DNA of 45,268 nt from Kiloniellales bacterium (GTDB taxonomy: Bacteria; Pseudomonadota; Alphaproteobacteria; Kiloniellales; J153). The notes under the pieces are model-generated. The model had not been told where the DNA came from. It made no database searches and saw only the letters and a list, made by a program, of their open reading frames with translations. This document shows, piece after piece, positions 32,255-44,923 of this stretch; within the stretch, counting starts at the first letter, position 1, and the number at the start of each line of letters is the position of its first letter. The position numbers were made by a program, and so were the translations under genes. Location of the stretch: contig JAZGBC010000160.1 in the NCBI GenBank assembly GCA_036444495.1, positions 1-45,268 on the forward strand, in the 5' to 3' direction.

Positions 32255-33013
32255 TTACACCAGCGTGCGGCCGCCATCGACGTAGATGGTCTGGCCGGTG
32301 ATGAAGGCGCCCGCCGGTGAGGCGAGCAGCAGGACCGTTCCCACCAGATCCTCGACCGTGGCGAAGCGGCCCAGGGGGATGCGGCTCATCTGGTAGTCGT
32401 ACTTGCCGGTCTTCTTGAGAAACTCCTCGACCAGCGGGGTCGCGATCACCGCCGGACCGATGGCGTTCACCGTCACCCCGAGCGGGGCCCATTCCAGCGC
32501 CAGCACGCGGATCAGATGCGAGAGCGCCGCCTTGCCGCTGGCATAGGCCGCGTATTCCGGGTTGACCACCTGGCTGGAGACCGAGGCGAGGTGGATCATG
32601 CGCCCGCCGCCCCGATCGGCCATGACCCGGGCCGCTTGGCGGGAGAGGAGAAACGCGCCGGTCACGTTGGTCGCCAGCGTCTCGGCGAAGTCCTCCGCCG
32701 GAAGCTCGAGTGCCGGGGCGGTGCGGAAGATGCCCACGCTGTTGAGCAGAAGGTCCAGACGCCCGGTCAGGCCAAGCGCCGCCTTAACCGCGGCCTCGCA
32801 GGAGGCCTCGTCCCGGACATCGAGCGGGCAGGAGCCGTGGCCCTCCCCGGGCAGCCCCCCGGCCACCCCGCGCGCCGCCGCGGCGTCCTGGTCCGCCACC
32901 ATGACCCGCGCCCCGCGCTCGGCCAGCGCCTCGGCCAGCCCGGCCCCGATGCCGCCTGCAGCCCCGGCGGCGAGCACCGCCCGCCCGGCCATATCGAACA
33001 GCGGATCGGTCAT
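32255..33013 (-). CDS. short-chain dehydrogenase/reductase (SDR)
   Basis: 252 aa. Gly-rich NAD(P) motif GAAGGIG, catalytic YASGKAAL (YxxxK), and the C-terminal GQTIYVDGG. Confidence 0.8.
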   Translation of the reverse strand: MTDPLFDMAGRAVLAAGAAGGIGAGLAEALAERGARVMVADQDAAAARGVAGGLPGEGHGSCPLDVRDEASCEAAVKAALGLTGRLDLLLNSVGIFRTAPALELPAEDFAETLATNVTGAFLLSRQAARVMADRGGGRMIHLASVSSQVVNPEYAAYASGKAALSHLIRVLALEWAPLGVTVNAIGPAVIATPLVEEFLKKTGKYDYQMSRIPLGRFATVEDLVGTVLLLASPAGAFITGQTIYVDGGRTLV

Positions 33014-33044
33014 GGCGGCGCCGCGTTCCCGAAGCCGCCCGCGA

Positions 33045-33956
33045 TCAGACCGCGGGCCGAGGCTGGGGCGATGCCGGCATGTGCAGCATCTCGCGCGCCT
33101 CTTCCGGACTGGCCACCTCGCGCCCCAGCTCTCGCACGATGCGCACCGCGCGCTCGACCAGTTGCGCGTTGCTTTCGGCGAGCCGTCCGGGGCCGTAGTA
33201 GACGTTGTCCTCCAGCCCGACGCGGATGTTGCCGCCCATCGCCACCGCCATGGTGCTGAGCGGAAGCTGGTACTTGCCGATGCTCACGATCTGCCAACTG
33301 GAGCCCTCGGGAATGGCGTCCAGCATGGCGAGCAAATTGGCGGGGCTGGCCGGGATGCCGCCGCGGATGCCCATGACGAAGCTGAAGTGAAGCGGCGGCT
33401 CGAACACGCCTTTCTTGGCCAAATCGAGGACGTTTTCGATGTGGCTCAGGTCATAGACCTCGATCTCGTTGGCGATGCCGCGGTACTTGCAGCCCTCGAT
33501 GAACTCGGCGTTCCATTGCTTCGAATTGGAGAACAGCCACTCCTGACCCTTGTGGTCGAAGTGGAAGGTGCCGGCGTTCACGGTCAGCATGTCCGGTTGC
33601 GGCGCGATGTCCAGCAGCGCCGTACGCTCCTCCTGCTTGAAGGGCTGGCCGATGCCCTCGTCATCGAACCAGATGCCGATGCCGTTGCCCACCTGGGTGA
33701 TCATGCCGGGACAGCGGCTCATCACGCCGTCGACCACCTCGCGATAGATCGACAGGTCGCTGGAGGTGCGCCCCTTGGGGTCGCGCACGTGAATGTGGGC
33801 CACCGAGGCGCCGGCGTCGTAGCAATCGTGAAAATCGCTAATGATTTCCTCCGGTTGCTCGGGCAGGGCCGAATTCGCCTCCTTGCCGTGCAGGCCGCCG
33901 GTCGTGGCGATCGTGATGACGGCTTTTCCCGGGTTGGTCAGGTTCGGTTTCATCAT
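33045..33956 (-). CDS. beta-keto acid cleavage enzyme (BKACE / DUF849, 3-keto-5-aminohexanoate cleavage family)
   Basis: 303 aa from MMKPN. ITIATTGG...LP..PEEI......C.DAGASVAHIHVRD matches the BKACE TIM-barrel N-terminus. The upstream track extension is rejected. Confidence 0.8.
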   Translation of the reverse strand: MMKPNLTNPGKAVITIATTGGLHGKEANSALPEQPEEIISDFHDCYDAGASVAHIHVRDPKGRTSSDLSIYREVVDGVMSRCPGMITQVGNGIGIWFDDEGIGQPFKQEERTALLDIAPQPDMLTVNAGTFHFDHKGQEWLFSNSKQWNAEFIEGCKYRGIANEIEVYDLSHIENVLDLAKKGVFEPPLHFSFVMGIRGGIPASPANLLAMLDAIPEGSSWQIVSIGKYQLPLSTMAVAMGGNIRVGLEDNVYYGPGRLAESNAQLVERAVRIVRELGREVASPEEAREMLHMPASPQPRPAV

Positions 33957-42730: not shown

Positions 42731-42820
42731 CGCTTTTCCCGCCGTCACCGGATCCGGAAAAACTGCGGGAATCGGAGTTTTCTGAAGCGACAGAACAGCC
42801 ATCATGACGACCGCCCAGGT

Positions 42821-44923
42821 CTATGATTCGTGGAAGCCCCTGCCTTCCTTTGCCAGCCGTTCGAGGAGCGGCGCCGGTTTGAGCATCTCCCCCTGTGTGT
42901 CACAGAGCTTGCTCATAACATCGTAAATCGCCTTCGTGCCGACGCTGTCGGCGTAGAACAGGGGACCACCGCGGTAAACCGGAAATCCGTAGCCGTAGAT
43001 CCAGATGACATCGATGTCGCCGGGCCTGAGGGCGATGCCTTCTTCGAGTATCTTCGCCGCTTCGTTGATCAGCGGGTAGAGACAGCGCTCCAGGATCTCC
43101 CGGCCGTCTATCTCGCGCCTCTCGATGCCAAGTTCCGCGGAGATTCCGACGATGAGCTTTTCGATGTCCGGGTCCGGGATCGGGGTGCGGCTGCCCGGCT
43201 CGTAGCGGTACCAGCCGGCACCGGTCTTCTGGCCGAAACGGCCCATCTCGCAGATGCGGTCGGCGATCGGCGAATAGCGCTCGTCCTTGGGCCGTGCCTT
43301 GGCCCGGCGCTGACGAATCGACCAGCCGACGTCGAGCCCCGCCAGATCGCCCATGGCAAAGGGGCCCATCGGGAAGCCGAAGTCATAGATTGCCTTGTCG
43401 ATCTGCCGAGGCAAGGCCCCTTCCTCCAAGAGGAAATTGGCCTGTCGTGTATAAGCGTGGAGCATGCGGTTGCCGACGAAGCCGTCGCACACGCCGACCA
43501 GGACTCCGACCTTGCCGATCGTCTTGGAAAGCCGCATCACCGTGGCGATGGTTTCCTTCGAAGTCTTCGCGCCGCGCACGTTCTCCATCAGCTTCATCAC
43601 GTTCGCCGGGCTGAAGAAGTGAGTGCCCATCACCTTTTCGGGCCGCTCGGTTGCGGCGGCGATCTCGTCGACATCGAGGGTCGAGGTGTTGGTCGTAAGA
43701 ATGGCCTCTGCTTTGCACGTCCCATCCAGGGTCCGGAACACCTCCTTCTTGATGTCTATGTTCTCCAACACGGCTTCGATAACGATGTCGGCATCGGCGA
43801 TGTCTCCGTAATCCAGGGTACCGGCAATCAGCTCCATACGCGCGTCCATATCGGCCTGCGAGATCCGGCCCTTGGACATGCTGGCGGCGTAGTTCCTGCG
43901 GATCATGCCGAGGCCCTGTTCGAGCGCGTCGTGCGACACTTCGAGGATGCGCACCGGAATGCCAACGTCGGCGAAGTTCATGGCGATCCCGCCGCCCATT
44001 GTGCCGCAGCCGATGACGGCCGCCTCGCTGATCCGTGCAGCCGGAGTGTGGGCGGAGACATCGGGAATCTTGCTGGCCTGGCGTTCGGCGAAAAACAAGT
44101 GCCGCTGGCCCTTGGATTGCTCGGACTCACGGCACCGGGCAAATAAAGCGCGCTCTTCCGCCAGTCCCTGGGCAAAGGGCAACTTCACCGCGTTCTCGAC
44201 GCTCTCGATGCAGTGGTAGGGGGCGATCAGCCCCCTCGCCCGCCGTTCGATGCCCTTGCGGGTCCGCTCGAAAAGCTCGGGCGCGTCCCGGGCCTCGCGA
44301 AGCTTATCCTGCATCTCCCGGGTCTTGCGCAGCGGCCGCTGCTCGGCAATCAGCCTCGCGGCGAAGGCCACGGCGCCCTCGACGAGATCGCCCTCCACCA
44401 CCTCGTCGAGAAGGCCGAGCGACAGCGCCCTTTCGGCTGGCAGTTGTTCGCCGCTGAGGATGATCTTGAGCGCCGGTTCGACACCGATCAGCCGGGGCAG
44501 GCGCTGGGTTCCCCCGGCGCCGGGTATGAGGCCCAACTTCACCTCCGGCAGCCCCAGCCTCGCGGACGGCATTCCGATCCGGTAATGACAGCCCAGTGCC
44601 AACTCGAGCCCGCCGCCCACGGCCGCGCCGTGGATTGCCGCGACCACCGGTTTCGGGCAGTCCTCGACCTTATCGACGATCTCCGGCAGGCCGGGTACGC
44701 CGGGTTTCGGCAGCCGGCCGAACTCGCGGATATCCGCACCGCCGGAGAAGCAACGCCCGGCTCCGGCCAGCAAAAGGACCTCGACGTCCGGGTCGCCCGC
44801 GCCCTGCGCAAGACACCTGACAAGCGCTTCGCGAACCGGGCCGCCCAGCGCGTTGACCGGCGGGTTGTCAAGGAGGATGACGGCGACCGTTCCGCGCCGT
44901 TCGTATCGGACCAATTCAGCCAT
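42821..44923 (-). CDS. FadB/FadJ-like bifunctional enoyl-CoA hydratase / 3-hydroxyacyl-CoA dehydrogenase
   Basis: 700 aa. N-terminal crotonase fold (VAVILLDNPPVNAL...FSGGADIREF), central NAD-binding VIGCGTMGGGIA, and C-terminal 3HCDH domains. Confidence 0.9.
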   Translation of the reverse strand: MAELVRYERRGTVAVILLDNPPVNALGGPVREALVRCLAQGAGDPDVEVLLLAGAGRCFSGGADIREFGRLPKPGVPGLPEIVDKVEDCPKPVVAAIHGAAVGGGLELALGCHYRIGMPSARLGLPEVKLGLIPGAGGTQRLPRLIGVEPALKIILSGEQLPAERALSLGLLDEVVEGDLVEGAVAFAARLIAEQRPLRKTREMQDKLREARDAPELFERTRKGIERRARGLIAPYHCIESVENAVKLPFAQGLAEERALFARCRESEQSKGQRHLFFAERQASKIPDVSAHTPAARISEAAVIGCGTMGGGIAMNFADVGIPVRILEVSHDALEQGLGMIRRNYAASMSKGRISQADMDARMELIAGTLDYGDIADADIVIEAVLENIDIKKEVFRTLDGTCKAEAILTTNTSTLDVDEIAAATERPEKVMGTHFFSPANVMKLMENVRGAKTSKETIATVMRLSKTIGKVGVLVGVCDGFVGNRMLHAYTRQANFLLEEGALPRQIDKAIYDFGFPMGPFAMGDLAGLDVGWSIRQRRAKARPKDERYSPIADRICEMGRFGQKTGAGWYRYEPGSRTPIPDPDIEKLIVGISAELGIERREIDGREILERCLYPLINEAAKILEEGIALRPGDIDVIWIYGYGFPVYRGGPLFYADSVGTKAIYDVMSKLCDTQGEMLKPAPLLERLAKEGRGFHES

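Follow-up and report, generated by a model that had tools for sequence, protein, structure and literature searches.

A reduced carboxylase and beta-keto acid cleavage cluster in a Kiloniellales bacterium and its possible link to organosulfonate breakdown

Beta-keto acid cleavage enzymes (BKACEs) convert R-CO-CH2-COO- and acetyl-CoA to R-CO-SCoA and acetoacetate. Paired with a short-chain dehydrogenase/reductase (SDR), as in carnitine breakdown via dehydrocarnitine and in lysine fermentation with Kce, they take a secondary alcohol through a beta-keto acid to acetoacetate and an acyl-CoA, the same order of steps as proposed below. Further catabolic SDR and BKACE pairs serve 2-deoxyribonate (bioRxiv 10.1101/205583) and phloroglucinol (PMC10470551). 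None of these four routes includes a biotin carboxylase, unlike the cluster analysed here, which we met in a 45,268-nucleotide (nt) stretch of DNA from a Kiloniellales bacterium (contig JAZGBC010000160.1; hereafter the window). Positions 32255–40463 of the window encode an SDR, a BKACE, a TAXI-TRAP importer, a BCCP (biotin carboxyl carrier protein), an IclR-family regulator and a carboxyltransferase (CT). From their sequences and those of their relatives we read these genes, with middling confidence, as a reduced copy of a widespread IclR-controlled carboxylase/BKACE cluster in which a small keto compound, likely a sulfonate, would be carboxylated and then cleaved with acetyl-CoA.

Carboxylation followed by such a cleavage has been described for acetophenones. 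The three-component biotin carboxylase HpeCBA of Rhodococcus rhodochrous GD02 has been purified and carboxylates anionic 4-phospho-acetophenones at their acetyl group, using one ATP each (PMC9618137), and AcvCDE of Sphingobium sp. SYK-6 has a PycB-like CT, with VceA and acetyl-CoA converting the beta-keto acid to an acyl-CoA (bioRxiv 10.1101/2022.04.28.489975). This route handles acetovanillone; its beta-keto acid decarboxylates spontaneously to the ketone, and the carboxylase can serve as a salvage enzyme (PMC9618137; bioRxiv 10.1101/2022.04.28.489975).

HpeCBA, AcvCDE and XccABC of Aromatoleum aromaticum are three-component aryl methyl ketone carboxylases with separate biotin carboxylase (BC), BCCP and PycB-like CT subunits, as in the complete form of our cluster. 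The likeness lies in the subunit layout of the related loci and in the inferred chemistry. By analogy, the predicted logic matches that of the acetovanillone route, in which an anionic methyl ketone becomes a beta-keto acid that is cleaved with acetyl-CoA; VceA we take to be a BKACE. HpeCBA and AcvCDE act on aromatic substrates with a dedicated kinase and phosphatase (HpeHI/HpeD and AcvAB/AcvF), whereas such genes did not turn up in the related loci: no kinase gene was seen, and a HAD hydrolase occurred only in loci of the L015 type (related loci are numbered with the prefix L). The cluster further differs from all three systems in its importers, its regulator, its BKACE paralogues and its link to SauS and Xsc, and the window copy also in lacking BC. 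The cluster would thus join methyl-ketone carboxylation to acetyl-CoA-dependent cleavage in an aliphatic and probably sulfonate-linked setting.

The cluster family and its copy in the window

Close homologues of the window CT number in the thousands, with top matches 74–87% identical. In a scan that took a single genome for each species, 385 relatives were confirmed, and the best 80 loci were analysed together with others reached by exact-protein look-ups. The resulting census comprises 82 non-redundant alpha- and gammaproteobacterial loci, in which genes were counted by tblastn with reference proteins and by independent clustering of open reading frames (ORFs). Orthologous CTs are 68–87% identical and occur in hundreds of species. 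CT is present in 77 of the 82 loci, BC, directly upstream of CT, in 57, BCCP in 56 and BKACE, mostly directly after CT, in 44; less frequent are the SDR (39), the fused TRAP permease (37), the TAXI protein (35), the IclR regulator (32), a TauE-like protein (23), an amidase (11), a SauS-type aldehyde dehydrogenase (7) and a glutathione S-transferase (GST; 7). In the usual layout, BCCP and IclR point leftward from a shared intergenic region and BC, CT and a second BKACE (BKACE2) rightward, often with an SDR and either a TAXI-TRAP or an SsuA-type ABC importer, the latter standing in place of TAXI-TRAP in some loci. BKACE2 is a paralogue of 274 amino acids (aa) with 32% identity to the window enzyme (BKACE1), and its nearest PDB relatives are the group of 3NO5, 3FA5 and 3CHV.

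The earlier note on this DNA, made from the sequence alone, did not know the gene combination from any characterised pathway. This agrees with our searches: full-text queries for the combination and for the predicted intermediates gave no description of the cluster, within a coverage outside which most subscription journals lie. The family is widespread and apparently uncharacterised, a conserved multi-operon catabolic cluster of which the window instance is a trimmed member. Its hosts include the cultured Roseovarius sp. 217, R. halotolerans CECT 8110, R. nitratireducens, R. salincola and Afifella sp., which makes the cluster directly testable.

Profile matches recovered all nine genes listed by the earlier note at the same positions (Table 1). 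The SDR reaches the cutoff of no NCBIfam equivalog in the profile scan and is 74% identical to its orthologue in L012. BKACE1 keeps the Zn-binding and catalytic motifs HIHVRD and VGLEDN and is 85–87% identical to its L012 and L099 orthologues. Its top PDB match is Kce (2Y7D, 177 bits), and it stays below every NCBIfam equivalog cutoff, including those for Kce (267 against 382), 3-oxoadipate:acetyl-CoA acetyltransferase (204 against 350) and the 3,5-dioxohexanoate model (190 against 430). Both parts of a TAXI-TRAP transporter, the TAXI binding protein and the fused DctQM-type permease, are encoded, the former with PDB relatives that are all distant (41 bits or less). The BCCP carries the biotinylation motif EVMKL with its biotinyl-lysine. 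The IclR protein falls below the cutoffs of the PcaR/PcaU subfamily (162 against 285) and BhcR (159 against 350) models. The window CT has all hallmarks of the CT family (the Asp that binds the metal, carbamyl-Lys, a pair of His and the catalytic Ser/Thr motif) and agrees with 14 orthologues at all columns that do not vary among them. No BC subunit was found by tblastn in the whole 45-kb window, a gap that the earlier note had missed. By GC content at third codon positions (GC3), 32255–40463 is one compositional unit, with values of 0.88–0.91 from the SDR (0.90) through CT, against 0.82 for the MscS gene on the other flank.

Table 1 Coordinates of the core unit and its rightward neighbours in the window
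Feature	Position	Strand	Evidence and remarks
SDR-family dehydrogenase, 252 aa	32255–33013	−	PF13561, 210 bits; downstream of BKACE in leftward operon
BKACE paralogue 1 (BKACE1), 303 aa	33045–33956	−	PF05853 (DUF849), 309 bits
Conserved promoter/operator block, copy 1	34050–34097	+	Between BKACE and TAXI
TAXI-family TRAP solute-binding protein, 358 aa	34209–35285	+	Signal peptide; TIGR02122, 111 bits against cutoff 84; PF16868
Fused TRAP permease, 649 aa	35415–37364	+	TIGR02123, 323 bits against cutoff 321; PF06808
GST pseudogene remnant	37361–37460	+	N-terminal 21 aa and C-terminal 17 aa in different frames
Stand-alone BCCP, 166 aa	37488–37988	−	TIGR00531, 141 bits against cutoff 115
IclR-family regulator, 275 aa	38032–38859	−	PF01614 and PF09339; upstream of BCCP on the same strand
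Bidirectional promoter and block copy 2 (38901–38948)	38878–38948	+	Between IclR and CT
CT, PycB/OadA type, without BCCP domain, 494 aa	38979–40463 (GTG start; ORF opens with ATG at 38940)	+	PF00682 (HMGL-like) and PF02436 (PYC_OADA)
Cytoplasmic orphan Mo/W-bisPGD enzyme, 680 aa	40688–42730	+	PF00384 and PF01568; N-terminal CxxCxxxC; no signal peptide
FadB/FadJ-like ECH and 3HCDH protein, 700 aa	42821–44923	−	Domain matches; GC3 0.82

The shared block that the earlier note had seen in two divergent promoter regions is real and conserved in relatives. Its two copies of about 48 nt are 81% identical, and the 23-nt core AAATGAAATCAATCGTnTTGCAT occurs exactly twice in 45 kb, where no occurrence is expected. 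Between IclR and CT, two promoters overlap, a rightward one (TTGACA at 38878, a 17-nt spacer, AATTAT ending at 38906) and a leftward one (TTGATT at 38930, a 17-nt spacer, CATAAT ending at 38902), and the invariant core therefore contains the leftward −35 box. About 25 loci have kept the block upstream of BC or CT, where it follows a sigma-70-like promoter (CTTGACA, 17 or 18 nt, then ACTATG or AATTAT), and its core GAAATCAAT.GTCTTG is nearly invariant. It also precedes the importer genes in the window, L012 and L060, the L012 copy lying at the equivalent site, and its flanks have partial dyad symmetry. We infer that the block is a bidirectional DNA promoter and putative operator for the adjacent IclR protein, which would act on this conserved element where it overlaps the two bidirectional promoters. 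A structured RNA or riboswitch was also considered and rejected: there was no Rfam match, RNAalifold predicted 0 pairs, and a hand-picked dyad helix was 60.7% paired with weak covariation.

Proposed route and its link to organosulfonates

A complete cluster comprises a three-subunit biotin-dependent carboxylase (BC, BCCP and PycB-like CT), one or two BKACEs, an SDR and a TAXI-TRAP or SsuA-type ABC importer. What enters through the importer would be a small anion with a hydroxy or oxo group, most likely a short organosulfonate, and the SDR would oxidise the alcohol to a ketone. The carboxylase would then use ATP to place CO2 onto the methyl group next to the carbonyl, giving a beta-keto acid that a BKACE would convert with acetyl-CoA to acetoacetate and an acyl-CoA. 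With a sulfonate, this acyl-CoA would be sulfoacetyl-CoA, and SauS, Xsc and Pta would take it on to acetyl-CoA and sulfite. The simplest fitting substrate would be 2-oxopropane-1-sulfonate, or its alcohol, via 3-oxo-4-sulfobutanoate. The logic outlined in the earlier note, an SDR making a beta-keto acid for cleavage with acetyl-CoA, coupled to a carboxylation or decarboxylation, fits this scheme. By analogy with HpeCBA and AcvCDE, the carboxylase may in part be a salvage step, a role that would help explain how loss of BC is tolerated; the window copy would need BC and the downstream enzymes to be encoded elsewhere. Sulfopyruvate, sulfoacetaldehyde, 2-oxoglutarate-like sulfonates and hydroxy-oxo-propanesulfonate were rejected as carboxylase substrates, on chemical grounds only, as BKACE chemistry would lead from them to oxalyl-CoA or formyl-CoA rather than to sulfoacetyl-CoA. 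A path from acetoacetate through 3-oxoglutarate to malonyl-CoA was rejected as a futile cycle.

The case for a sulfonate comes from the related loci. An aldehyde dehydrogenase that passes the equivalog model for SauS, the acylating sulfoacetaldehyde dehydrogenase (730–788 bits against a cutoff of 600), is found in both alpha- and gammaproteobacterial lineages; in L037, L044, L046 and L058 it comes after BKACE2 or CT with the same orientation, and in L012, L073 and L091 it lies beside the cluster. A self-contained example is L058, with the order TauE, SsuA-type ABC importer, SDR, BioY, BKACE2, BCCP and IclR, then BC, CT, SauS, Xsc (990 bits against a cutoff of 676), a putative exporter and Pta. 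BKACE2 is the only enzyme of this locus able to form a CoA ester, and SauS needs sulfoacetyl-CoA; the substrate of BKACE2 would therefore be 3-oxo-4-sulfobutanoate. A sulfonate marker (TauE-like, SauS or SsuA-like) is present in 28 of the 82 loci, with SsuA-type binding proteins in 6. The sulfoacetate/sulfoacetaldehyde hub that Weinitschke and colleagues reportedly described in 2010 for Cupriavidus necator H16 consists of SauS, Xsc, Pta and TauE, and relatives of the window copy carry SauS, Xsc, Pta and TauE-like genes next to the cluster, in some of them in the same operon. As opposed to the known sulfoacetate pathway, in which the CoA ligase SauT supplies sulfoacetyl-CoA, its source in the cluster would be a BKACE acting on the carboxylation product. 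These links point to organosulfonate breakdown via sulfoacetyl-CoA, and the 'organic acid' substrate of the earlier note is perhaps too narrow for loci tied in this way to sulfoacetyl-CoA and sulfoacetaldehyde.

A more far-reaching proposal, which we offer only tentatively, is an unrecognised organosulfonate route in hundreds of marine and soil species of alpha- and gammaproteobacteria, in which an oxo-alkanesulfonate such as 2-oxopropane-1-sulfonate would be carboxylated by the biotin-dependent, PycB-like enzyme and cleaved by BKACE to sulfoacetyl-CoA for entry into SauS and Xsc, with BC-less copies like that of the window borrowing a BC encoded elsewhere. If true, it would give biotin-dependent carboxylases a new class of substrates besides those of the acetophenone carboxylases recently found in lignin degraders, and would add the first BKACE reaction yielding sulfoacetyl-CoA and a new entry to the sulfoacetaldehyde hub; it might also explain what becomes of an unidentified sulfonate within the marine sulfur cycle. 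Public annotation calls the homologues PycB, OadA, AccB or AccC, and 3-keto-5-aminohexanoate cleavage protein; in several hundred species the names 'pyruvate carboxylase subunit B', 'acetyl-CoA carboxylase BCCP/BC' and '3-keto-5-aminohexanoate cleavage protein' are probably wrong. The most interesting content is the carboxylase/BKACE route of the related loci, which by its gene content would feed the sulfoacetaldehyde hub, rather than the window itself.

Several observations weigh against a sulfonate. No sulfonate marker lies within 10 kb in 54 of the 82 loci, and no SauS, Xsc, TauE or Pta gene was found in the window, whose copy, without BC and BKACE2, may be inactive. The SauS genes of L012, L073 and L091 may belong to an adjacent sulfoacetate module, and we know of no natural source of 2-oxopropane-1-sulfonate. 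BKACE2 passes the NCBIfam model for 3-oxoadipate:acetyl-CoA acetyltransferase (470–485 bits against 350), and the best NCBIfam match of the IclR protein, below its cutoff, is the beta-ketoadipate regulator subfamily (PcaR/PcaU), which together with the BKACE2 score would suit a dicarboxylate route. The same cluster logic might thus serve a keto-carboxylate: levulinate (4-oxopentanoate), for example, which the SDR would form from 4-hydroxyvalerate, would on carboxylation yield 3-oxoadipate, to be cleaved by BKACE to succinyl-CoA and acetoacetate. The PDB relatives of BKACE2 also favour this version, and characterised TAXI systems transport carboxylates. We consider it a serious alternative but rather unlikely in view of the co-directional SauS genes after BKACE2 or CT, joined in L058 by Xsc and Pta, and of the TauE-like exporters and SsuA-type binding proteins; moreover, since the CTs are all 68–87% identical, a single shared specificity is suggested.

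The CT itself gives reason to consider a simpler function, in which CT and BCCP, with BC where present, form a split pyruvate carboxylase or soluble oxaloacetate decarboxylase for anaplerosis, beside an independent SDR/BKACE/TRAP module for a hydroxy acid. The window CT has about 45% identity with the beta subunit of a genuine pyruvate carboxylase, which also counts against a sulfonate substrate, and passes the domain-level model NF006761 'pyruvate carboxylase subunit B' (435 bits against 402). It shares its fold with PycA/PycB (5KS8, the beta subunit of M. flagellatus pyruvate carboxylase and its top PDB match, 286 bits), OadA (2NX9, 272 bits) and transcarboxylase 5S (1RQB, 257 bits), and has in common with PycB, OadA and 5S the motifs RD..Q, the carbamyl-lysine 'IKD', HxH and PGGM.SNL, so that the metal, carbamyl-lysine and Ser motifs are conserved; public sources accordingly label homologues PycB or OadA. 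Yet it fails all equivalog models for PycB, OadA and 5S (355 against 734, 277 against 1182, 390 against 757 and 315 against 827) and has no fused BCCP, and its substrate-side motifs differ from those of pyruvate carboxylase (TFEFF for GYRHY, IKDPSG for IKDMAS, HMHCLTG for HAHATSG). Rather than standing alone, it sits in a conserved, IclR-controlled catabolic operon with BKACE and, in several loci, SauS, and shares its operator with the importer. A route that yields acetyl units only offers no pyruvate for carboxylation, and neither an Oad membrane subunit (OadB/OadG) nor a 12S gene was found in the window or in the neighbour census. Given the failed equivalogs, the differing substrate-side motifs and the operon context of the CT, we regard a plain pyruvate carboxylase as quite unlikely.

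Reduction and extent of the window copy

The nearest complete relatives are L012 (CT 82–84% identical) and the Kiloniellaceae locus L099 (84%). Both have BC between IclR and CT and BKACE2 after CT, and L012 also has a GST gene after the permease and a SauS gene. Relative to these, the window copy is a reduced form that has lost BC, BKACE2 and GST. The BC leader GGGACCGGA is joined directly to the CT start codon, the C-terminal tail of CT diverges after RPDIKS with BKACE2 missing beyond it, and of GST 38 residues are left, in two pieces that are both 76% identical to the intact L012 protein (tblastn); L099 has a similar GST remnant. The earlier note had taken remnants of a GST and of a thiamine diphosphate (ThDP) enzyme at the cluster border as signs of recent assembly or acquisition. 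Both remnants exist, but the GST remnant lies inside the unit, between TRAP permease and BCCP, and reduction is the better reading of the locus.

That the locus in this genome is a decaying, non-functional remnant would agree with the GST remnant, the missing BC and BKACE2 and the altered CT tail, and also with what has happened in its relatives. In L097/98, close relatives that are full of insertion sequence (IS) elements, BC was lost separately, leaving an N-terminal BC remnant among BC and BCCP fragments. In L100, from a sister sample (CT 86% identical), BC and BKACE2 are likewise absent, and a long, near-perfect inverted repeat resembling a transposon or miniature inverted-repeat element (about 4880–5500) directly follows CT, at the usual place of BKACE2. 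We nonetheless regard decay as rather unlikely. The six core ORFs and the remaining ORFs of the window are intact and the catalytic motifs kept, the promoter/operator is preserved and the BC leader cleanly joined to the CT start, and the window CT is not a long branch. BC-less layouts, moreover, recur in Hyphomicrobiales and other lineages and have persisted at 86% CT identity in L100.

Beyond CT, the earlier note had drawn a molybdenum enzyme (Mo enzyme, with a bis-pyranopterin guanine dinucleotide or bisPGD cofactor) and a FadB-like protein into a single nine-gene regulon. The genes are adjacent, and CT and the Mo gene lie on the same strand with 224 nt between them. The relatives tell otherwise: the co-occurrence across genomes that the earlier note looked to is found for the core genes across the 82 loci, whereas neither the Mo enzyme nor the FadB-like gene occurs in any of them. 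Orthologues of the Mo enzyme (60–71% identical) are solitary genes in unrelated contexts with other neighbours, often adjoining an FA_hydroxylase gene (PF04116); its GC3 of 0.72 is an outlier against the core; and a scan of the window found the operator core upstream of neither gene. On these grounds (absence from the 82 loci, solitary Mo orthologues, GC3 and the missing operator) the core unit ends at 40463 without them, and we judge both to be unrelated neighbours of different origin; a co-regulated pathway of all nine genes is highly improbable. The true unit is the six genes (SDR, BKACE, TAXI-TRAP importer, BCCP, IclR and CT), two operator copies and the GST remnant.

Neighbouring genes and further observations

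The top PDB match of the Mo enzyme is acetylene hydratase (179 bits). Among the characterised Mo-bisPGD equivalogs it scores highest, below cutoff, with the formate dehydrogenase alpha subunit (Fdh-alpha, 255 against 666), all other models being lower. The FadB-like protein likewise stays below the FadJ (499 against 869) and FadB (495 against 870) equivalogs. The context of the Mo gene and its solitary orthologues, with FA_hydroxylase as a recurrent neighbour of the latter, was examined in the window and in L009, L010, L011 (about 4000–20500), L008 and L101. On three ENA contigs, the Mo gene is present in two to four tandem copies, each flanked by IS3-family elements (HTH_Tnp_1 and rve), one copy being split into ORFs of 403 and 176 aa; this amplification looks like selection for gene dosage. 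At 7797–10334 (minus strand) the window encodes a second, different Mo-bisPGD oxidoreductase, which is 845 aa long, has a Fe4S4 domain at its N terminus and is only about 26–30% identical to the 680-aa enzyme. The ThDP remnant, an isolated fragment of about 37 aa with a ThDP-binding motif (TPP_enzyme_C, E = 1e-6) at about 45108–45219 (minus strand), lies in the gap upstream of the FadB-like gene; its identification as a piece of Xsc was rejected, as it has no similarity to Xsc. At 15123–22334 (plus strand), a MoxR-type AAA ATPase (15123–16298) comes first, and a 1001-aa BatA/DUF4159 protein (17254–20259) and then a 692-aa ORF without Pfam match (20256–22334) lie further downstream, a region that looks like a Bat/MoxR-type cluster.

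Some relatives carry additional enzymes. In loci of Arenicellales and Magnetovibrio the cluster is joined by LarA/B/C/E homologues, a family-III CoA-transferase, a carnitine-dehydrogenase-like protein and an acyl-CoA synthetase of the NDP-forming type. L066, L078, L079, L092, L074, L033 and L084 (Arenicellales, Magnetovibrio and some Hyphomicrobiaceae) have LarA-like genes alongside the cluster, and LarB, LarC and LarE, for synthesis of the nickel-pincer cofactor, are also present in the Arenicellales and Magnetovibrio loci, which suggests a step of hydroxy-acid racemisation or epimerisation in those lineages. In the SDR-BKACE1-TRAP module of gammaproteobacterial loci, a gene for a CurA-like NADPH enone reductase (L037, 14704–15726, and a 340-aa ORF from 15011 in L046; NF058644, 370 bits against a cutoff of 440) adjoins GST; along with two GST types, its presence is a hint that an intermediate may be a reactive enone. 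The carboxylase clusters of L058 (5479–6096), L014 (14858–15664) and L103 have a gene for the biotin transporter BioY within or beside them, a placement consistent with a genuine biotin requirement.

In a plasmid collection, a DNA search returned only incidental FadB and BKACE matches, and a protein search only clusters of CT (about 43% identical), AccB and AccC from Burkholderia, Caballeronia and Arthrobacter, which form a different family. This separate three-subunit family is found on catabolic plasmids, exemplified by L102 (a plasmid of Burkholderia sp. THE68) and L103 (an Arthrobacter plasmid). The Burkholderia CT cluster adjoins genes for acetoacetate decarboxylase, carbonic anhydrase, an acetate symporter and bioAFDB, and these plasmid clusters may encode further uncharacterised ketone carboxylases.

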